A stretch of DNA of 64,000 nt, taken from positions 32,001 to 96,000 of the IMG/VR virus record IMGVR_UViG_3300029305_000264. One strand, 5' to 3'. The DNA is from a virus. Shown in pieces: positions 12,967 to 41,149 of the stretch. The notes under the pieces are model-generated. The model had not been told where the DNA came from. It searched no databases and saw only the letters and a program-made list of their open reading frames with translations. The position numbers and the translations under genes are program-made. The first letter of the stretch is position 1, and each line of letters opens with the position of its first letter.

Positions 12967-14199
12967 ATGGATATTGATATCAACATGAACGCCTGCTTCG
13001 AGGAAGTGGATGATAGCAAGAAGCGGTATATAGTGATGAAGGGCAGTGCAGGTTCCGGGAAATCGGTTGATACTGCCATGAATTATATTTTGAGAATGAT
13101 GCAGGACAAGGGCAGGAACCTTGTGTGCATCCGTAAATCAGATATTACAAACCGTGACAGCACCTATGCAGAGTTGACAGGTGCTGTTTATCGGATGTTT
13201 GGAGCGCAGGCGGATAAATATTGGGATATAAAGCAAAGCCCATTGCAGCTTACTTGCAAGGCGAACGGAAACAAGATAATCTTCCGGGGCGTGAACGATG
13301 AGAAGCAACGAGAGAAGCTGAAATCTATCACCTTCCAAAAGGGCAAACTTACAGATGTATGGATAGAGGAAGCAACGGAAATCACGCAGGCAGACTTCGA
13401 AATAATAGACGATAGATTGCGTGGCGAACTTCCGCCGGGGCAGTTCTATCAAATACGATTGACTTTCAATCCGGTAAACAAGAATCACTGGATAAAGAAA
13501 GTCTTTTTTGATATTCCGGACGAAAATGTGCTTACACACCACAGCACATATCTAACAAATAGATTCATAGACGATGCGTACCGGGCGCGAATGGAACGAA
13601 GAAAGGTTGTCGATCCGGAAGGATATCAAATCTATGGATTGGGAGAATGGGGCGAAATTGGCGGTTTGATACTCCATAATTGGGAAGTCAAAGAGATTTC
13701 GCAGAATCCGGCAGATTACGATGATTTCGCAATCGGGCAGGACTTCGGATTCAACCATGCAAACGCAATTCTCCCGGTTGGATGGAAAGACGGTGATTTG
13801 TACATCACCAAAGAAATCTATGAGTTTGAAAAGGACACTTCGGAACTGATTGCCATTGCGGAGCAGATGGAGATACCGAAGAACCGGGAAATGTGGTGCG
13901 ATAGCGCGGAGCCGGACAGAATCAAGATGTGGAAGAAAGCAGGCTTCCGGGCAAAGGGCGTTGATAAGGGCGGTTCCGCAGGTTCCGTCAAGGCGCAAAT
14001 TGATTGGCTTAAACAGCGGAAAATATATGTGCATCCTTCCTGCACGAATACCATTAAGGAATTGCAACAGTGGAAATGGAAGAAGGATGAAAAGACCGGG
14101 GAATATTACGATGAGCCAGTATCGTTCCAAGACGATGCAATGGCGGCGTTGCGATATGTTCCGGAACGATGGAGAAAGCAAAAAGGTTGGCTTGTATAG
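12967..14199 (+). CDS. terL: Terminase large subunit (PBSX-like)
   Basis: 410 aa. Walker A KGSAGSGKS and a C-terminal nuclease region. ~80-85% identical to 52484-53719. Confidence 0.9.
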   Translation: MDIDINMNACFEEVDDSKKRYIVMKGSAGSGKSVDTAMNYILRMMQDKGRNLVCIRKSDITNRDSTYAELTGAVYRMFGAQADKYWDIKQSPLQLTCKANGNKIIFRGVNDEKQREKLKSITFQKGKLTDVWIEEATEITQADFEIIDDRLRGELPPGQFYQIRLTFNPVNKNHWIKKVFFDIPDENVLTHHSTYLTNRFIDDAYRARMERRKVVDPEGYQIYGLGEWGEIGGLILHNWEVKEISQNPADYDDFAIGQDFGFNHANAILPVGWKDGDLYITKEIYEFEKDTSELIAIAEQMEIPKNREMWCDSAEPDRIKMWKKAGFRAKGVDKGGSAGSVKAQIDWLKQRKIYVHPSCTNTIKELQQWKWKKDEKTGEYYDEPVSFQDDAMAALRYVPERWRKQKGWLV

Positions 14200-14214: not shown

Positions 14215-15687
14215 GTGCTTAGAATTGAAGAAATAAAGCAGTTTATGGATGAAGATGCGGCATCCGCAAAAAAGAGGTTGGCGCGGCAGGGCGAAGCCTA
14301 TTACAACGGTGAGCATGACATACTGAACACGCGGTTATTTTATTACAATGCGGATGGAAATCTTGTAGAAGATAAGACAAGAAGCAATGTAAAGATTCCG
14401 CATCCGTTCTTCACGGAATTAGTAGACCAAGCAACACAGTATATCCTTTCCGGTGAAGGCGGCTTTATCCGGTCCGACAAACCGGAGTTACAAACGGAAC
14501 TGGATGCCTATTTCAACGAGAACGAAGATTTTGTTTCGGAACTGTCCGAGGTATTGACCGGATGCCAAACAAAGGGATTCGATTATATGCACGCATATAA
14601 GAACGCGGACAACAGAACGGCGTTTGCCTGCGCTGATTCAATCGGCGTTATTGAGGTAGAAGCAAGATTTGCGAGTGATGAAAAAGAGCATATCATTTAT
14701 TGGTATATTGACCGGGTAGATCGTGAAGGAAAGAGAATCAAGCGCATTATGGATTGGGATGCGGAGCAGGTTGCATATTATGTGCAGGCGGACAACGGAG
14801 AAATCGAGGTTGATACGATGGAACCGATAAATCCGAAGCCGCACACACTGTATGCAGAGGAAGGCAAGGAAAAGACCTACTATGATTCCTTCGGATATAT
14901 TCCTTTCTTCCGGTTGGATGGATGCAAGAAGCAGACTTCCGCATTAAAGCCGATTAAGCCGCTTATTGACGATTACGATGTAATGGCAAGCAGTCTTTCC
15001 AATAACCTTGCAGATTTCGATACTCCGATTCATGTTGTAAGAGGATTCGAGGGTGATAATCTTGATGTATTACAGCAGAACTTGAAAACGAAGAAACTTA
15101 TCGGGGTAAGTGAGGAAGGCGGCGTTGAGGTTCACACGGTAGACATTCCGTATCAAGCGCGGCAGGCGAAGTTGGAATTGGACGAAAAGAATATTTACCG
15201 TTTCGGCTTCGGCTTGAATCTGTCCGGTATGAAGGACACGGCGGCAACAACCAACATTGCAATCAAGGCGGCATATTCCCTGCTTGATTTGAAGTGTTCC
15301 AAGTTGGAAATCCGGTTGAAGCAGTTCCTGCGGAAGATTATCAAGGTTGTTATTGATGAAATCAACAAACAGCAGGGCACCGATTACCAAATGAAGGATG
15401 TATATTTCAGCTTTGAACATGAAATTATGTCAAACGAGCAGGAGAACGCACAGAACCGATTGACCGAAGCACAGAAGCGGCAGACGGAAATCACAACGCT
15501 TTTAAATATTGCGGCGCAGCTTGACAATGAAACCTTGATGCAGTTGATTTGCGAGCAGTTGGACCTTGATTACGATGATATCAAAGACAAACTTCCGAAT
15601 CCGGATGAAGCGGAGCAGGAAGTGAACGCGGCGCAGGCGGCATTGAACAATGCCCCGGTGGAAGAAGTAGGTGTTGCGGTTGAATAA
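14215..15687 (+). CDS. Portal protein (SPP1 gp6-like)
   Basis: 490 aa, GTG start. Position after terL. Conserved with 53886-55376. Confidence 0.85.
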   Translation: MLRIEEIKQFMDEDAASAKKRLARQGEAYYNGEHDILNTRLFYYNADGNLVEDKTRSNVKIPHPFFTELVDQATQYILSGEGGFIRSDKPELQTELDAYFNENEDFVSELSEVLTGCQTKGFDYMHAYKNADNRTAFACADSIGVIEVEARFASDEKEHIIYWYIDRVDREGKRIKRIMDWDAEQVAYYVQADNGEIEVDTMEPINPKPHTLYAEEGKEKTYYDSFGYIPFFRLDGCKKQTSALKPIKPLIDDYDVMASSLSNNLADFDTPIHVVRGFEGDNLDVLQQNLKTKKLIGVSEEGGVEVHTVDIPYQARQAKLELDEKNIYRFGFGLNLSGMKDTAATTNIAIKAAYSLLDLKCSKLEIRLKQFLRKIIKVVIDEINKQQGTDYQMKDVYFSFEHEIMSNEQENAQNRLTEAQKRQTEITTLLNIAAQLDNETLMQLICEQLDLDYDDIKDKLPNPDEAEQEVNAAQAALNNAPVEEVGVAVE

Positions 15688-17290
15688 ACGGCAGAAGGAA
15701 ATCATGCAGGTACAACTTGACAACGAAAAAGCGGTATTAAAGCAGTTGGAAAGCAATTATGAAGATGCACTTGGGGAAATCAACAGCAAGATTGAATTGT
15801 TGCTATCCCGGCAGGATGCCGATATGCAACATGTTATATACCAAGTAGAGTATCAGAAGGCATTGAAAACGCAGGTGCAGGCTATTCTTGAAACCTTGCA
15901 AACGAACGAATTTGAAACCATATCGGAGTACCTTACAAAGTCCTATGAAGATGGTTTTATTGGCACCATGTACGACTTGCAGGGGCAGGGAATACCGCTT
16001 ATCTTCCCGATAGACCAAGCGCAGGTTGTGGCGGCAGTAATGCACGAAACAAAGCTATCTGAAAGCCTTTATACTGCACTTGGAAAAGATGTTGTGGACC
16101 TGCGGAAGAAGATTGCCGGGGAAATTAGTCGCGGAATATCAACAGGCATGATGTATTCCGAGATTTCCCGGAATATTTCTTCATGGGCGCGTATTCCTAA
16201 GAATAACGCAATGCGGATTGCAAGAACCGAAGGGCATCGCATACAGGAAAGAGCAACGATGGATGCGCATATAAAGGCAAAGGATAAGGGCGCAGATATC
16301 GTGAAAGTATGGAGTGCCGCACTTGATAGCAGGACACGCGACACGCACAGGGAAGTTGACGGAGAAATCCGAGAGGTTGAAGAAGTATTCTCCAATGGTT
16401 TGTTATATCCCGGCGATCCGAGCGGCAGGGCGGAAGAAGTAGTGAACTGCCGTTGCCGATGCAATTCAAAGGCGCGGTGGTTATTGGGCGGAAGCTATAC
16501 CAAATGGAGCGAAGATGCCCCGGTGCTGATTGATGATGAAGGCACAACGCAATTTGCCATTGTGGATGATAGGAATTACGAAGGGTTCAAGAAACAGTAC
16601 AAGCAGGCATCCGAGCGTGTCCGAAGCGGCGTACAAAAGATAAATGATGCTGAAATTAGTATTCCTTTGAAAAAACTACAAAAAAGCGGAATTGAATACA
16701 ATGATGTAAAAGACCTTAAGAAATCACTAACAGATGCCGAAATAATAAGTAGATTGGGCGGCGGTGATATGACAAATGGTTCATGTTCATCGCTTGGGTT
16801 TGCATATATAGGCAATAAGTGCGGATATGATGTCTTGGATTTCAGAGGTGGAGAAAGCCGAAGTTTCTTTGGAAGAAATGGCAACATAAAAGAGATTGCA
16901 GAAATGCCGAATGTTAGAAGTACGATATTAAAAGAATACAATGATTTAAAAGCCGCATCTTCCTTGTTACAATCAATGGAACCAAACAAAGAATATTATT
17001 TATCGACAGGAAACCATGCTTCGATTGTAAAAAGAACAGAATCGGGATATATGTATTTGGAACTGCAATCGGCAACCGGAAACGGATTCAAGGAACTAAC
17101 AACAGATGTTTTGAAAAGAAGATTTGGATGTAAAAAAACTCATACGATTGCAGGCACGAAATATGAATCAACAAATGTATTGATCGAAGCTGAATCACTG
17201 CAAGAAAATGAGGAGTTCAGAAAAATTTTGGGCTATTTAAACACATCAGAAACAGGGCAAAAGAAAGGACTGAAAGGGCATGTTAAGTGA
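15671..17290 (+). CDS. MuF/SPP1 gp7-like head morphogenesis protein fused to a ~220-aa Cys/His C-terminal domain
   Basis: MuF motifs ARTEGHRIQERA and LDSRTRDTHREVDG in aa 1-280. The extension from ~aa 320 carries NGSCSSLGFAY and GNHASIVKR. The start may be TTG 15680. Confidence 0.8.
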   Translation: MLRLNKRQKEIMQVQLDNEKAVLKQLESNYEDALGEINSKIELLLSRQDADMQHVIYQVEYQKALKTQVQAILETLQTNEFETISEYLTKSYEDGFIGTMYDLQGQGIPLIFPIDQAQVVAAVMHETKLSESLYTALGKDVVDLRKKIAGEISRGISTGMMYSEISRNISSWARIPKNNAMRIARTEGHRIQERATMDAHIKAKDKGADIVKVWSAALDSRTRDTHREVDGEIREVEEVFSNGLLYPGDPSGRAEEVVNCRCRCNSKARWLLGGSYTKWSEDAPVLIDDEGTTQFAIVDDRNYEGFKKQYKQASERVRSGVQKINDAEISIPLKKLQKSGIEYNDVKDLKKSLTDAEIISRLGGGDMTNGSCSSLGFAYIGNKCGYDVLDFRGGESRSFFGRNGNIKEIAEMPNVRSTILKEYNDLKAASSLLQSMEPNKEYYLSTGNHASIVKRTESGYMYLELQSATGNGFKELTTDVLKRRFGCKKTHTIAGTKYESTNVLIEAESLQENEEFRKILGYLNTSETGQKKGLKGHVK

Positions 17291-17489
17291 TTTCTATAAA
17301 ATCAATGACAATGACAAGATATGGTGGATAGATGACCTTGAACAAGTCGGGCAGTTCTTGTTTAGCTTTGACAAAAAGAAAATCTATAATCTATTTGCGG
17401 ACTATCCGCACAATATGACGAAGGAAGAAAAAGAAATCTTTGACAAAGAAAATCCATATTGGAAAGAATTTTTCAAAGACAGAAAGTAA
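17280..17489 (+). CDS. Small acidic/aromatic protein (candidate immunity partner)
   Basis: 69 aa. Overlaps the MuF stop by 11 nt. No counterpart after the prophage 2 MuF gene. Confidence 0.45.
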   Translation: MLSDFYKINDNDKIWWIDDLEQVGQFLFSFDKKKIYNLFADYPHNMTKEEKEIFDKENPYWKEFFKDRK

Positions 17490-17497
17490 GGTATTAA

Positions 17498-17524
17498 GGG
17501 CAGTCAATCGGCTGTCCTTTTTGT
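17498..17524 (+). terminator. Intrinsic terminator
   Basis: GGGCAG, 8-nt loop, CTGTCC, then TTTTTGT. Confidence 0.55.
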
Positions 17525-17556
17525 ATGCAAAAAAATAAGAAAGTGAGGTAGAAAAG

Positions 17557-17829
17557 ATGGATTTTACGAATGTAGGAACGGTTGTTGCAATCGTGGTTAT
17601 TTGCTATTTGGTAGGATTGCTTTGCAAGCAGCTTCCGAAGGTAAAGGACAATTTCATTCCGTCCATTGTCGGCATTTTAGGCGGTGTTTTGGGCGTTGTT
17701 GGAATGTTTGTTATCCCGGACTTTCCGGCGAACAATGTACTGGATGCAATCGCAGTCGGTATTGTTTCCGGTTTGGCATCCACAGGAGCAAACCAAGCTG
17801 TAAAACAGATTAAAGAGGGGATGAAGTGA
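17557..17829 (+). CDS. Holin-family membrane protein
   Basis: 90 aa with 2-3 predicted TM segments (VVAIVVICYLVGLL, SIVGILGGVLGVVGMFVI, AIAVGIVSGLAS). Immediately precedes a PG hydrolase gene. Confidence 0.55.
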   Translation: MDFTNVGTVVAIVVICYLVGLLCKQLPKVKDNFIPSIVGILGGVLGVVGMFVIPDFPANNVLDAIAVGIVSGLASTGANQAVKQIKEGMK

Positions 17830-17830
17830 T

Positions 17831-18544
17831 ATGTCTATTAAGATCGGACATGCAGTAATGGACGAAAACGGAAAAGCAGGTTATGGCGGAGAGAAAGCCG
17901 GGGACCAAACCGGGAAAGAGATATGCACCCGGAAATGGTACAACGGCGGATGGAATGTATACCTTGAATGCACAAGCGAAAGACTTGCAAAGAAAGCCGC
18001 ACAGATTATGGAGCAGATTTGCAAGGATTCATCATACGGATATTCACAGCCGCGCAGATGGTTCGGATATAAGTCCATCGTAAAGAATGGCGGTGACATT
18101 TCCAAAGGTTCCGGCGGATTCGATTGTTCTTCCCTTGTTATTTCCTGCTATAAACTTGCCGGATTGAACATTGCGGCGGATGGATATACCGGGAACATGA
18201 GAGCGAAACTTCTTGCAACCGGGAAATTCCGTTTATACCAAGACGAAGAACATCTTGCAAGTGATAAGTTGGCAAAGGTTGGCGGAATCTTCTTGAAGGA
18301 AGGAAGCCATGTTGTAATGGCACTTGAGGACGGAAGCGGAACAAGCAAGATAGACTATTATCCGAAGTACACAGGCAAATCCGGAAGCCTTGTAGATGCG
18401 TTAAACAGCATCGGTGTTGACAGTTCCAAAGGACACCGGGCGCGCATTGCGGAAGTGAATGGAATTGTTGGGTACAGTTACACGGCAGCACAGAACAATA
18501 AAATGCTGAATCTGCTTAAAGCAGGAAAACTTATTAAGATTTAA
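17831..18544 (+). CDS. Peptidoglycan amidohydrolase / NlpC-P60-like hydrolase with C-terminal binding-like module
   Basis: GHAVMDENGKAGYGGEKAGDQTGKE, then FDCSSLV (Cys) and GSHVVM (His). The last ~60 aa are shared with endolysin 37953-38588. Confidence 0.6.
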   Translation: MSIKIGHAVMDENGKAGYGGEKAGDQTGKEICTRKWYNGGWNVYLECTSERLAKKAAQIMEQICKDSSYGYSQPRRWFGYKSIVKNGGDISKGSGGFDCSSLVISCYKLAGLNIAADGYTGNMRAKLLATGKFRLYQDEEHLASDKLAKVGGIFLKEGSHVVMALEDGSGTSKIDYYPKYTGKSGSLVDALNSIGVDSSKGHRARIAEVNGIVGYSYTAAQNNKMLNLLKAGKLIKI

Positions 18545-18570
18545 AAGCATCCTTCGGGGTGCTTTTATTA
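18544..18570 (+). terminator. Intrinsic terminator
   Basis: AAGCATCC, TTCG loop, GGGTGCTT, then TTATTATT. Confidence 0.55.
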
Positions 18571-19426: not shown

Positions 19427-20281
19427 ATGGCTACTACTATGTTAGAGAACCTTATCAATGCAGAAGTTATGGCGGATATCATTTCCGCGAAGATTGATTC
19501 CAAGATTGTTGTTACTCCGTTCGCGAAGATTGACACCACCCTTGAAGCAAAGAACGCAGGTGACACTATCACCGTTCCGCAGTTCGCTTACATCGGTGAT
19601 GCAGAGGATGTTGCAGAGGGTATCGAGTGCGGCACCGTACTTCTTACCGCTACTACCACCAATGCAAAGGTTAAGAAGGCAATGAAGGCTGTTGAGTTGA
19701 CCGATGAAGCAGTTCTTTCCGGTTACGGCGATCCGGTAGGCGAAGCAAACGGACAGCTTGCAAAGTCCATCGCATCCAAGGTTGATGCAGATGCAATGGC
19801 AGCATTACAGACTGCACAGCTTAAGTATGACGGAATCGCATCCGCTATTTCTTACTCCGGCATCGTTGATGCGGTTGATATCTTCGAGGAAGAAGTAAAT
19901 TCTCCGAAGGTTATTTTCGTACATCCGAAGCAGGTTACGAAGTTAAGAAAGGATGCAGATTTCCTTGCCGCTGATAAGTTGGCAGAAACCGTTCGTGTAA
20001 GCGGTGCAATCGGTAAGATTTGCGGTTGTGAAGTTGTTCCGTCCAAGAAGGTTCCGGAGAACGAGGGCGGCACCGGATATGTTTGTCCGATTGTTAAGTT
20101 AAACGGTGACAATGAAACCGAGGATGAGAGCCCGGCATTGACCGTTTACAGAAAGCGCAATGTCAATGTTGAAACCGAGCGTTTCAGCCTTGCAAGAAAG
20201 ACTGCGGTTTCCGTTGATGAGATTTACACCGTTGCACTTTCCAATGCTTCCAAGGTAGTTCTTGCAACCTTCAAGAAGTAA
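19427..20281 (+). CDS. Major capsid protein
   Basis: 284 aa. Follows the scaffold gene. Strong RBS and biased codon usage. Not orthologous to the prophage 2 capsid. Confidence 0.65.
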   Translation: MATTMLENLINAEVMADIISAKIDSKIVVTPFAKIDTTLEAKNAGDTITVPQFAYIGDAEDVAEGIECGTVLLTATTTNAKVKKAMKAVELTDEAVLSGYGDPVGEANGQLAKSIASKVDADAMAALQTAQLKYDGIASAISYSGIVDAVDIFEEEVNSPKVIFVHPKQVTKLRKDADFLAADKLAETVRVSGAIGKICGCEVVPSKKVPENEGGTGYVCPIVKLNGDNETEDESPALTVYRKRNVNVETERFSLARKTAVSVDEIYTVALSNASKVVLATFKK

Positions 20282-31557: not shown

Positions 31558-32006
31558 CAAGCAAAGATTTTGTGTTAGACACCATGCGAAAGTATGGAAG
31601 AAAAGTTGCAGAGGAATTGCAGGAGAAAGCAGAGAGTATGACCGGAACCGAACTGTATGAAGAATATGGTTTCATTCCTTCTTTCTATGCAGCATGTGCA
31701 AAGTGCAATATGCTTGATCGTCCGGTGGGTTTTGTGTGTCGTTCTCCGCAGGGCAGAGTTGTGAAGCTGTTGCAGCCGTATGACAGCACTGTATTCACAG
31801 CGGAACCGGAAGATTTGCCTGCACAGTGGGGATTCAAGTGGTCACAGGATCCGAAACACGCACTTCCGTATGTGGCAATTTCCACAAGTCCTTATGGCAC
31901 AGGGGATTGTTGCACCGAAGATGATGTTGTATATCGTTCCTTGATTGACAACAATGTTTGGAAGCCTTCTGAATATCCGCAGGGATGGGAAGCAGTAACG
32001 GAATAA
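31554..32006 (+). CDS. Hypothetical protein
   Basis: 150-aa ORF, ATGA-coupled. The first GGATCC site of the window lies here (31847). Confidence 0.45.
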   Translation: MTSKDFVLDTMRKYGRKVAEELQEKAESMTGTELYEEYGFIPSFYAACAKCNMLDRPVGFVCRSPQGRVVKLLQPYDSTVFTAEPEDLPAQWGFKWSQDPKHALPYVAISTSPYGTGDCCTEDDVVYRSLIDNNVWKPSEYPQGWEAVTE

Positions 32007-37934: not shown

Positions 37935-37952
37935 TTTGAAAGGGTGATTTCT

Positions 37953-38588
37953 ATGAAAACCAACAAGGGATTGATTGATTTTGCAGCATCAAAGATCGGC
38001 ACACCTTATGTGTACGGAATGAAGGGTGCTGTCATGACAAGGGCAAAATATAATTGGCTGAAAAAGACCTATGGTTCTTTGGTATGGGATTCTGATGTCA
38101 AGAAGGTTGGAAAGGTATGCACTGACTGTTCCGGATTGATTTCATGGTACACCGGGAAGGAAAAGTCATCTTCCATGTTCAAGGCAGAAGCAAAGGTTGT
38201 GCATCCGATCAGTACGGTTGAAAATGCACCTGTTGGGGCAGCTGTTTGGAGAAAAGGACACATCGGAATCTATGTTGGCAATGGTTATGCAATCGAAGCA
38301 AGGGGATCCGCTTATGGTGTTGTAAGGACCAAGATTGCAAAAAGGGATTGGACACATTGGTTCCTGCTGAATGACATCACCTATGAAGCAGCAAAAGAGT
38401 ATTTCAAGAAGTACATAGGAACATCCGGAAGCATCGTGGATGCCTTGATCACCATCGGTGAATCCAGTTCATTTGCGTACCGGAAGACCATTGCACAGGC
38501 AAACGGAATCACCGGGTATGTCGGAACAGCTTCACAGAACACCACCATGCTTGCAAAATTAAAGAAGGGTACACTTATAAAGCCTTGA
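37953..38588 (+). CDS. NlpC/P60 endolysin with C-terminal binding-like module
   Basis: GTPYVYG...CTDCSGLI...GHIGIYVGNGYAIEA. C-terminal SGSIVDALITIG..IAQANGITGY.GTASQN is shared with 17831-18544. Confidence 0.75.
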   Translation: MKTNKGLIDFAASKIGTPYVYGMKGAVMTRAKYNWLKKTYGSLVWDSDVKKVGKVCTDCSGLISWYTGKEKSSSMFKAEAKVVHPISTVENAPVGAAVWRKGHIGIYVGNGYAIEARGSAYGVVRTKIAKRDWTHWFLLNDITYEAAKEYFKKYIGTSGSIVDALITIGESSSFAYRKTIAQANGITGYVGTASQNTTMLAKLKKGTLIKP

Positions 38589-39637: not shown

Positions 39638-41149
39638 CTAGAAATTCCAATGAATTAAGACATCCCCATCATCAATGATGATTTTTTCAATCAGTTCATT
39701 CAGCATGACATTGACCATGAATGAATTATTTTCAGCAAGGGCAGTTTTGAATTCATCAACCATGTTGAACACTTCCTGCTTTTCCTTTTTGAACGTGTTT
39801 TGTTTGATTCTTTCAAGGGTGCTTTCAAGCTTGGACCTTTCAGCATTCAGTGGTTCGATCTTTGCCTTGATTTCTTCCATAGGAATTGAACCGATAGAAT
39901 ACAAGTCCATCAGATTTGAAATCTGCTTCTTGATATATTCAATATTATTTTCGACAAGCTTTTTCTTTTCCGATTCATCAACAGAAGTGTGAATCTTGTC
40001 AATGTATTCCGGATCCGTTTTCAGCTTGAAGACTTCACCGAAAACCATCTTTTCAAGTGCGTGATCCCGGTATGTTTTATTTTTGCAATTCGGATCCTTT
40101 ATCATATCAGGATTGCTTTTTTCCCTTGAATAACAGATATAGTATGCACGGACGGAACCATCCTTGTTTTTGCCACCTGATCTGTAATGGTAACGAGATC
40201 CGCAGCAAGAACACCACAGAAGGCCGCCAAGGGGTGCTTTGTACCGTCTGCCTTGCTTCATGTGTTCGTTGGCAATTTCTCTTTCTGCCAATATTTCCTG
40301 TGCTTTGGCGAATGTTTTCATGTCAATGATCGGATCATGGCCACCTTCCACCCATTCCCCAAGATGTTTCAACTTGCCGATGTATGTCTGATTTTCAAGC
40401 ATCTTCCGGATCCTTGTTTCATTCCATGCACCTTTTCCCTTGCCTTTGCCGATGGAAGTTTTGAATCCCCGATCATTCATCATGGTCATGATTGTGTAAA
40501 TCGGTGTTCTTTGATTGAACAGTTTGAATACTTCTTGGACCTGCATGGCATCATATTCATTCACAACAAGATAACCTGTTTCTTCATCATAGTCATATCC
40601 GGTAGGGTAATAGGCACCACCACGATATTTTCCTTCTTTTGCCCGGCCTGCTTTTCCTTCCTTCATTCGTTCCTTGATTCTTTCCCTTTCAAGTTCAGCG
40701 AACACAGCAAGGATCCCGACCATTGCACGGCCGAAGGGTGTTGATGTGTCGAATGCTTCTGCTCTTGAAACGAAGGCAACATCATTTTCATTGAACACCT
40801 TCTGAATCAGATATAGTGTGTCAAACTGACTTCTTGAAAGTCGGTCCAATTTATCAACAAGAACAATGTCTGCCATTCCTCTTTCTATTTCTGAAATCAT
40901 TTCCTTCAGGGCAGGTCTGTCCATGTTGCCACCTGAATATCCCGGATCAACATACACCTTCACAAGCTGATATTCATAAGCTTCACAATATTTCTTCAGT
41001 CTTTCTTCCTGTTCACCAAGGGAATAGCCTTCTTCTGCCTGTTCCAAAGTAGAAACACGGATATATGCAAACACCCTTTTCTTGATTATTCGTGTTTCCG
41101 GATCCTGATGATATGCATTTGCCAATTTTTGTAAATTTCCCATGTCCAA
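39638..41149 (-). CDS. int: Large serine recombinase (prophage 2 integrase)
   Basis: 503 aa. VFAYIRVSTLEQ, DRLSRS, zinc ribbon and coiled coil. A CTAGC..GCTAG hairpin lies just after the stop. Confidence 0.9.
   Translation of the reverse strand: MDMGNLQKLANAYHQDPETRIIKKRVFAYIRVSTLEQAEEGYSLGEQEERLKKYCEAYEYQLVKVYVDPGYSGGNMDRPALKEMISEIERGMADIVLVDKLDRLSRSQFDTLYLIQKVFNENDVAFVSRAEAFDTSTPFGRAMVGILAVFAELERERIKERMKEGKAGRAKEGKYRGGAYYPTGYDYDEETGYLVVNEYDAMQVQEVFKLFNQRTPIYTIMTMMNDRGFKTSIGKGKGKGAWNETRIRKMLENQTYIGKLKHLGEWVEGGHDPIIDMKTFAKAQEILAEREIANEHMKQGRRYKAPLGGLLWCSCCGSRYHYRSGGKNKDGSVRAYYICYSREKSNPDMIKDPNCKNKTYRDHALEKMVFGEVFKLKTDPEYIDKIHTSVDESEKKKLVENNIEYIKKQISNLMDLYSIGSIPMEEIKAKIEPLNAERSKLESTLERIKQNTFKKEKQEVFNMVDEFKTALAENNSFMVNVMLNELIEKIIIDDGDVLIHWNF

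Follow-up and report, generated by a model that had tools for sequence, protein, structure and literature searches.

What is the extra domain at the C terminus of a phage head protein, and what is the small gene that overlaps its stop codon? The question was raised by a 64,000-nucleotide (nt) stretch of viral DNA (IMG/VR record IMGVR_UViG_3300029305_000264, positions 32,001 to 96,000), here called the window, which carries two tandem prophages (about 2000 to 41150 and about 41400 to 64000). The MuF head protein of prophage 1 is 539 amino acids (aa) long and is followed by a 69-aa open reading frame (ORF), whereas the MuF protein of prophage 2 is 350 aa long. A first-pass annotation, made from the sequence alone, had proposed that the long protein and the small ORF form a MuF polymorphic toxin/immunity-like pair. 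We consider it likely, from comparative sequence analysis, that prophage 1 MuF is indeed a polymorphic toxin and that its neighbor, a member of the Pfam family DUF7675, is its predicted immunity protein. We are far less confident about any particular chemistry. The elements on which the argument rests are as follows (window coordinates).

15671-17290, plus strand: predicted MuF-toxin fusion gene, 539 aa, GTG start (ORF list and Pfam Phage_Mu_F)
15671-16630, plus strand: MuF head-morphogenesis (delivery) module, aa 1 to 320, common to the short prophage 2 MuF
16670-17287, plus strand: C-terminal papain-fold Cys-His domain (putative toxin), aa 334 to 539, from the hidden Markov model (HMM) envelope
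16784-16786, plus strand: codon of C372 in the GSCSS motif, predicted catalytic nucleophile; invariant, codon checked
17015-17017, plus strand: codon of H449, predicted catalytic base; invariant, codon checked
17060-17068, plus strand: codons of E464-L465-Q466 in the YLELQ motif, predicted third catalytic and substrate-site residues; E464 and Q466 invariant
17280-17489, plus strand: DUF7675 gene (Pfam PF24723), 69 aa, predicted cognate immunity/inhibitor protein
17496-17527, plus strand: terminator-like hairpin and T-tract closing the putative toxin/immunity unit; 10-bp stem with 5 GC pairs, 4-nt loop
55333-56385: prophage 2 MuF, 350 aa

How much of the long protein is shared with the short one? 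Comparison of the two MuF proteins by BLASTP revealed 56% identity over aa 4 to 317 of the long protein and nothing significant beyond. Since the match ends at about aa 317, the extension comprises about 220 aa and begins near nt 16631, much as the annotation had read it from an alignment reaching about aa 320. Within the shared part, the Phage_Mu_F domain (PF04233) matched aa 146 to 263 (E = 2.7e-19, 70.4 bits versus a cutoff of 29.6). Where the gene starts is ambiguous. If it starts at the GTG at 15671 (539 aa), it overlaps the portal stop codon by 17 nt. An alternative start lies at 15704; gene calls in metagenomes begin at the ATG located 11 codons after 15671, which gives 528 aa (P0113). 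Because the ortholog P0371 and prophage 2 MuF start at the equivalent of the upstream position, the 539-aa form is favored. A chance ORF, a miscalled extension, or a frameshift was ruled out, because the 528/539-aa protein (in the 528-aa call) recurs with identical gene order in independent metagenome contigs.

Is the extension a domain in its own right? Pfam searches with aa 301 to 539 and with aa 321 to 539 gave no match, even at E ≤ 10, and neither single-sequence nor profile searches of the extension against NCBIfam and PDB sequences returned one. The only profile match was phrog_7104, a family whose function is not known (E = 1.4e-56). Homologs of the extension included 112 word-indexed sequences at 38 to 57% identity, and an exhaustive profile search recovered 1050 cluster-50 representatives with the Cys-His domain at E ≤ 1e-3, 811 of them at E ≤ 1e-30. 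In the top 150 representatives listed, the domain ends at the protein C terminus or ≤2 residues from it. The domain is about 190 to 205 aa long and basic (isoelectric point [pI] 8.7), with an N-terminal GGGDxT motif, a conserved FRGGxS loop, and a conserved C-terminal tail, LGYINT...QxKGxxGxxK, features that set it apart from Tox-PL1. Three alignments, of 51, 68, and 90 sequences, were concordant on the invariant positions G370, S371, C372, S374, D390, R392, G394, S396, F400, H449, E464, Q466, R484, F485, N524, and T525. C372 (within NGSCSSLGFAY) and H449 (within GNHASIVKR), the pair picked by eye in the first-pass annotation, are therefore invariant throughout. In six-frame ORF HMM searches of the window, the Cys-His domain and DUF7675 each turned up once, in prophage 1, so the small ORF is single copy and, as had been claimed, absent from prophage 2. 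The extension is a real conserved domain that is unnamed in Pfam and NCBIfam. The earlier statement that it is not one of the named toxin types is borne out by the Pfam, NCBIfam, and PDB sequence searches, with the qualification that it has a distant relative in Tox-PL1 (below).

What fold does the domain adopt? An AlphaFold2 model based on the 51-sequence alignment had a mean predicted local distance difference test (pLDDT) score of 87.7 and a predicted template modeling (pTM) score of 0.83. Secondary structure assignment of the model by DSSP placed the start of helix 371-383 at S371/C372, the start of strand 449-455 at H449, and the end of strand 460-464 at E464. With Cys at a helix N terminus, His on a strand, and Glu on the strand that follows, the model shows the papain-fold (clan CA-type) arrangement. 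Consistent with this, papain-fold thiol enzymes made up 26 of the 30 best Foldseek matches in the PDB, which included UfSP1/2, the phytochelatin-synthase-like Alr0975 (probability 0.94), the Josephin-like clippase BpJOS, PaTox-P, lymphostatin, staphopain, and Mcf. As these matches are weak, they were used for the fold class alone, and the similarity to phytochelatin synthase and UfSP was set aside as a functional lead. In BFVD, the best non-family match (E = 2.7e-4, probability 1.0, template modeling [TM] score 0.43) was a phage protein annotated as "Papain fold toxin 1, glutamine deamidase," an annotation that denotes Pfam PF15644, the Tox-PL1 family. The resemblance to papain-like motifs suggested by the annotation extends to the fold and the placement of the catalytic residues and no further.

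How close is the relationship to Tox-PL1? OspI is a UBC13 glutamine deamidase, and the Tox-PL1/OspI-type clade comprises protein glutamine deamidases along with peptidases and transglutaminase-like enzymes. Tox-PL1 domains have the signature NC-H-DxQ and are found fused to MuF and to WXG domains of type VII secretion (Zhang et al. 2012, PMC3482391); the deamidase label of the family stems from Shigella OspI, a specific protein deamidase (PMC10318531). Two close orthologs of prophage 1 MuF, P0451 and P0484, have a genuine PF15644 domain in place of the Cys-His domain, and the PF15644 model picks them up at E values of about 2e-13. Compared with NC-H-DxQ, the signature of the Cys-His family, SC-H-ExQ, has the same order and similar spacing, with two positions substituted (N to S and D to E). 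By eye, P0451 and P0484 also share with the family a "GYDV" after the Cys helix and the pattern "H..[VI]......G...YL[DE].Q." When 66 family members were compared with four MuF-linked Tox-PL1 domains by hhalign, the score was 32.7 (P = 2.4e-4, 103 columns), in a register that aligned C with C, H with H, and ExQ with DxQ. Eight other MuF extension clusters used as controls scored 10.9 to 17.2, the reversed alignment scored 16.5, and 100 column-shuffled Tox-PL1 alignments scored 12.6 ± 2.6 on average, with a maximum of 23.4. Matches to single Tox-PL1 sequences were weak (E = 0.016 to 0.064). Together, the sequence comparison and the model support placing the Cys-His domain in a family of its own, a larger and distant sister of Tox-PL1 that lies outside PF15644 as now modeled.

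Is the extension conserved or variable in close relatives? We surveyed the best 120 of 4928 homologs of the MuF N-terminal region, which are 68 to 100% identical to prophage 1 MuF over the N-terminal 320 aa. Twenty-three of the 120 have no extension, and the extensions of the other 97 sort into at least 20 clusters that are unrelated to one another; the Cys-His domain is present in only 2 of the 120. The extension that the annotation had expected to vary among relatives is thus variable and not conserved. Named extensions among these orthologs are the CdiA_C tRNase, Ntox50, ART-PolyVal, ADPrib_exo_Tox, Gln_amidase (Tox-PL1), and DUF6883. The second-largest cluster (14 of 97; P0373, P0385, and 12 related proteins) has a C-terminal region of about 220 to 240 aa with an HE[IV]GH motif and no Pfam match, and it is probably another unnamed MuF toxin domain, of metallopeptidase type.

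The Cys-His domain is also found on other carriers. According to Pfam, the N termini of the 90 best family representatives comprise 31 Phage_Mu_F, 9 Phage_min_cap2, and 3 VG15 domains, and apart from two with an additional ADP-ribosyltransferase, the others have no Pfam domain. ADPrib_exo_Tox occurs alongside the C-terminal papain-fold domain in 2 of the 90; these proteins could be dual toxins, or the papain-fold domain could act in them as a releasing peptidase. On one metagenome scaffold (locus L001, 1666-9535), the Cys-His domain sits on a helical N terminus of about 130 aa, and the upstream gene has the same N terminus fused to a WHH/colicin-DNase nuclease. Downstream of the domain are DUF7675, then two orphan genes encoding the N terminus only, and a 91-aa WXG100-like protein. 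This polymorphic toxin array, which resembles those of type VII secretion, adjoins a gene for a 1112-aa FtsK_SpoIIIE (EssC-like) ATPase, which is first in order. The orphans share the helical N terminus "MAKYAIS.EG," a trafficking domain that has no Pfam model; the helical N terminus of the relatives gave no Pfam LXG match, and the WXG100 match of the neighboring 91-aa protein was subthreshold (E = 0.0046). EssC-like genes also flank the toxin-domain gene in loci L015 and L021, and in L003 the domain and DUF7675 form a pair alone among housekeeping genes. Such polymorphism and such varied N termini are hallmarks of a putative toxin/immunity cassette that recombines among delivery modules, as judged from sequence.

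What, then, is the small ORF? Its product matched PF24723 at E = 3.1e-35 (120.3 bits versus a cutoff of 27), with residues 5 to 69 covering profile positions 1 to 65 of 65. In line with its first description as an acidic, aromatic protein overlapping the MuF stop, it has a pI of 5.0, and 15 of its 69 residues (22%) are F, W, or Y. Its ATG (17280) falls within the MuF ORF, which terminates in TGA at 17288-17290, so that the two genes overlap by 11 nt (17280-17290; GGG CATG TTA AGTGA, with the ATG of DUF7675 and the TGA of MuF). The same 11-nt overlap is found in Streptococcus phage IPP68, in Butyrivibrio virus Ceridwen, and in metagenome locus L001. Where the annotation had placed a terminator after the small ORF, there is a terminator-like hairpin: at 17496-17519 it reads AAGGGCAGTC-AATC-GGCTGTCCTT and is followed by TTTTGT, the sequence after the stem reading TTTTGTATGC. 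The protein sequence has no signal peptide and no transmembrane segment. An AlphaFold2 model (pLDDT 84) predicts a small beta-alpha fold, for which Foldseek returned no analog in the PDB (best E = 4.3). DUF7675 has 1376 database homologs. Our literature search found no paper mentioning DUF7675, and a search on MuF-linked papain toxins with an immunity protein yielded nothing specific to the Cys-His domain family.

To what extent is DUF7675 tied to the Cys-His domain? We scanned one genome per GTDB species and obtained 65 loci encoding the domain. These come from Clostridia, Lachnospiraceae, Oscillospiraceae, Megasphaera, Peptoniphilus, Prevotella, Alistipes, and Muribaculaceae and, further, from Chryseobacterium, Bergeyella, Treponema, Fibrobacter, Actinobacillus, and Eggerthella. 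In 64 of the 65, the toxin-domain gene has a DUF7675 gene directly against its 3' end; in the sole exception, the contig ends 40 nt past the toxin-domain gene. The two genes are codirectional in 43 of the 64 loci, mostly in Bacillota, where they usually overlap (by 11 nt where checked). In the remaining 21, mostly in Bacteroidota, DUF7675 is convergent, on the opposite strand and abutting the toxin stop codon (among them L003, L009, L014, L017, L022, L031, L036-L038, L041, L050, L058, L061, L063, and L067-L069). This difference in strand suggests that the putative immunity gene is independently transcribed in one lineage and translationally coupled in the other. The small ORFs that come after canonical Tox-PL1 MuF genes are unrelated to DUF7675, which argues that DUF7675 is specific to the Cys-His domain. 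Moreover, pairwise identities of the toxin domains correlate with those of their DUF7675 partners (Mantel r = 0.45, reached by 0 of 2000 permutations); the two proteins covary. The computational features behind the proposal of a MuF polymorphic toxin/immunity-like pair, namely, a variable extension, a papain-fold Cys/His domain as modeled, and a neighboring DUF7675 in 64 of 65 loci, thus held.

How might such a pair work? MuF proteins of the SPP1 gp7 type become part of the capsid at the portal and exit it with the DNA. In the mechanism that we propose, the N-terminal 320 aa would be an SPP1-gp7-type minor head protein serving as the delivery module, and if MuF is packaged and leaves with the DNA, the C-terminal enzyme should reach the cytoplasm of the injected cell. 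Cytoplasmic delivery of MuF C-terminal enzymes has been proposed (Zhang 2012, PMC3482391; Jamet 2017, PMC5576092). The C-terminal 200 aa or so would constitute a toxic papain-fold enzyme with a Cys372-His449-Glu464 center, assisted by Gln466 and invariant Asp, Arg, Ser, and Asn residues. Its target would be a cytoplasmic protein of the receiving cell, modified by covalent thiol catalysis; we suggest deamidation or cleavage because these activities are known for the nearest clade. DUF7675, presumably translated together with the toxin through translational coupling, would bind and block it in the producer as well as in cells carrying the cassette. Where DUF7675 appears to form its own transcription unit, as in Bacteroidota, carriers could be protected while the late genes are off. 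The toxin and DUF7675 would together make up a mobile cassette that has been grafted onto MuF1 proteins, onto MuF2 proteins (Phage_min_cap2), and onto a helical N-terminal domain beside EssC-like type VII secretion ATPases.

Several results weigh against this reading. Immunity proteins normally diverge fast, whereas DUF7675 has a mean pairwise identity of 53% versus 43% for the toxin and is the more conserved partner in 84% of pairs. DUF7675 matches keep 71 to 86% identity across Fusobacterium, Eubacteriales, and Saccharibacteria; the best-scoring 120 of the 1376 matches are 71 to 100% identical, and 22 of the 69 positions are invariant (e.g., W16, G24, FSFD 28-31, DYP 41-43, ENP 57-59, and W61). 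Such conservation, unusual for an immunity protein, leaves room for a cofactor, chaperone, or substrate-mimic role. In a search for a promoter that could drive DUF7675 in the lysogen, 6 sites were found versus 6.3 expected in shuffled sequence, which is no signal above chance. As for the enzyme, the structural matches in the PDB are weak (best E = 2e-3, TM scores of 0.3 to 0.4), so that a chemistry cannot be assigned from them, and the PF15644 HMM found no match in the window domain or in the 51, 68, and 90 family members.

Could other roles account for the same observations? In phage T4, the head-packaged ADP-ribosyltransferase Alt modifies the host at the start of infection. The Cys-His domain might likewise be an injected host-takeover or antidefense effector that modifies a host factor or a defense protein as infection begins, with DUF7675 silencing it during virion production. 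Its location on MuF implies coejection with the DNA, as established for SPP1 gp7 (discussed in PMC5576092); OspI, the relative in Tox-PL1, is not a general protease but a protein deamidase of specific action (PMC10318531); both partners are strongly conserved across phyla, which fits one conserved target; and the cassette is present in an isolated phage, Butyrivibrio virus Ceridwen. We nevertheless regard this role as unlikely. The cassette also occurs without phage genes, beside EssC-like ATPases and WHH/colicin-DNase arrays, which is the context of an interbacterial toxin; the domain and DUF7675 can stand as an isolated pair among housekeeping genes; and orthologous MuF proteins carry classical nuclease or ADP-ribosyltransferase toxins in the domain's place. 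It is also distinctly unlikely, in our estimation, that DUF7675 is a chaperone, activator, or adaptor that folds, stabilizes, or loads the domain and confers no immunity. The conservation of DUF7675, which exceeds that of the toxin, would suit such a role, as would the lack of a structural analog among known immunity proteins. However, its downstream, translationally coupled position is typical of immunity genes, the small ORF found downstream is particular to each MuF toxin type, DUF7675 has neither a signal peptide nor a transmembrane segment, and the convergent, independently expressed copies of Bacteroidota suit the protection of carriers that do not produce the toxin.

A role within the particle itself fares worst. 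If the domain were a head-assembly or ejection peptidase that cleaves phage proteins (scaffold, MuF, or other cargo), with DUF7675 as a temporary inhibitor or assembly factor, then the prophage 2 head module and the 23 of 120 closest orthologs without an extension would be difficult to explain, since their assembly is independent of the domain, as would the presence of the cassette on nonphage N termini. It is true that a processing role was proposed for some MuF-linked Tox-PL1 domains (PMC3482391), that no prohead protease was recognized between the portal and capsid genes of prophage 1, and that in the two family members with ADPrib_exo_Tox the latter might be released by the papain-fold domain. 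In 88 of 90 representatives, however, there is no other Pfam toxin or enzyme domain to release, and an obligatory, dedicated partner gene points to self-protection. We therefore hold the peptidase role to be very improbable and retain the toxin/immunity pair as the preferred reading.

Is there a form of the toxin/immunity reading that would accommodate the conservation of both partners? One that we entertain, with considerable doubt, is that the conserved cross-phylum cassette encodes an enzyme that covalently modifies one universal bacterial protein (for example, by OspI-like deamidation) and that DUF7675 mimics the recognition surface of that target. Were this so, the sequence of DUF7675 would point directly at the target, and phage particles would be protein-injection devices between bacteria of gut communities, with type VII-secreted delivery in the nonphage loci.

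How does the pair compare with known systems? MuF toxins are abundant in gut Bacillota prophages, and to our knowledge, those covered by experiments are all ADP-ribosyltransferases or (p)ppApp synthetases. The class of MuF toxins, with its rule that a small ORF lies downstream, has been described (PMC5576092; PMC3482391), and the prophage 1 locus has the features of that class: a PF04233 module after the portal gene, a variable extension, a downstream ORF of <150 aa, and a Bacillota-type prophage. It differs in that the Cys-His domain is outside the class-defining toxin domains and has no Pfam model, and in that the downstream ORF is itself a conserved family; the category of extensions without a known domain used by Jamet would have taken in this domain. 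With Tox-PL1 (PF15644), the domain shares a papain fold, the collinear Cys-helix, His-strand, and [D/E]xQ elements, and a C-terminal position on MuF and type VII-secretion-type toxins. The Pfam model of Tox-PL1 has 114 positions, however, versus the roughly 190 to 205 aa of the Cys-His domain, and the DUF7675 partner accompanies only the latter.

Antibacterial toxins of the papain fold that are paired with immunity proteins have been described as well. Cpe1-Cpi1 of Escherichia coli consists of a papain-like cysteine protease toxin of a type VI secretion system (T6SS) and contact-dependent inhibition (CDI) that cleaves GyrB/ParE, with a small immunity protein encoded next to it (PMC12136450). 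Cpe1 resembles the putative toxin here in its papain-fold Cys-His center, cytoplasmic action, C-terminal position on polymorphic delivery modules, and adjacent small partner, the antibacterial action of the Cys-His domain being predicted. Cpe1 differs from the Cys-His domain in being a C39/ComA-like peptidase whose triad is Cys-His-Asp, in its delivery through T6SS or CDI in Gram-negative bacteria, and in its unrelated immunity protein; it was not among the Foldseek matches of the domain in the PDB. Among MuF toxins, Bxa has been shown experimentally to be neutralized by an adjacent immunity protein (PMC11699363). Bxa/Bsi/BAH and Apk2/Aph1 (PMC11699363; PMC12226406; PMC10083569) are prophage MuF toxins whose antibacterial activity and immunity are known from experiment, whereas the present pair is known from sequence, and their chemistry is that of ADP-ribosyltransferases and (p)ppApp synthetases. 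In Bacteroidales, a MuF fusion to a predicted glutamine deamidase has been described in which a small ORF always co-occurs (PMC11699363). The MuF class and immunity-paired antibacterial toxins of the papain fold are thus known, and the novelty lies in this putative toxin-domain family and in DUF7675 as its partner.

These data define a sizeable family (about 1000 clusters at 50% identity) without Pfam or NCBIfam annotation, with members in pneumococcal and other streptococcal prophages, in a rumen Butyrivibrio phage, and in Bacteroidota, Spirochaetota, and Fusobacterium-related genomes. They also provide a first functional hypothesis for Pfam DUF7675, that of a cognate immunity protein. C372, H449, and E464/Q466 are precise targets for mutation, and the window contains a natural control in prophage 2 MuF, which is 56% identical over the shared region and has no cassette. 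The gain is in annotation and in enabling a direct experiment; the pair is not a new kind of system.

The genes around the pair in prophage 1 are as follows.

12967-14199, plus strand: terminase large subunit
14215-15687, plus strand: SPP1-type portal (PF05133, E = 5e-55), directly upstream of the MuF gene
17557-17829, plus strand: holin, Phage_holin_5_2, 90 aa
17831-18544, plus strand: endolysin-like ELLD/NlpC-P60-type protein, 237 aa
18724-19404, plus strand: scaffold
19427-20281, plus strand: major capsid

The order terminase, portal, MuF, scaffold, and capsid is that of a siphovirus packaging/head module. The packaging/head modules of the two prophages are syntenic and clearly homologous, with interprophage phmmer E values of 1e-241 for terminase, 2e-207 for portal, 2e-118 for the MuF N-terminal domain, and 8e-79 for scaffold. 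Between the toxin/DUF7675 unit and the scaffold gene of prophage 1 lies an insert with the holin and ELLD genes (17557-18567) and its own terminator-like hairpin (18542-18567), placed within the head module and away from the usual lysis position at the end of the genome. The insert is absent from prophage 2 and from the closest relatives (L048, L049, and L052), in which the scaffold gene directly follows DUF7675. We considered the holin and ELLD genes as parts of the cassette and rejected this, because they are absent from all 65 other loci. A second NlpC/P60 protein (37944-38588), weakly similar to the ELLD protein (E = 2e-14), occupies the normal lysis position, and a large serine recombinase (39638-41149, minus strand) lies at the end of prophage 1, between the two prophages.

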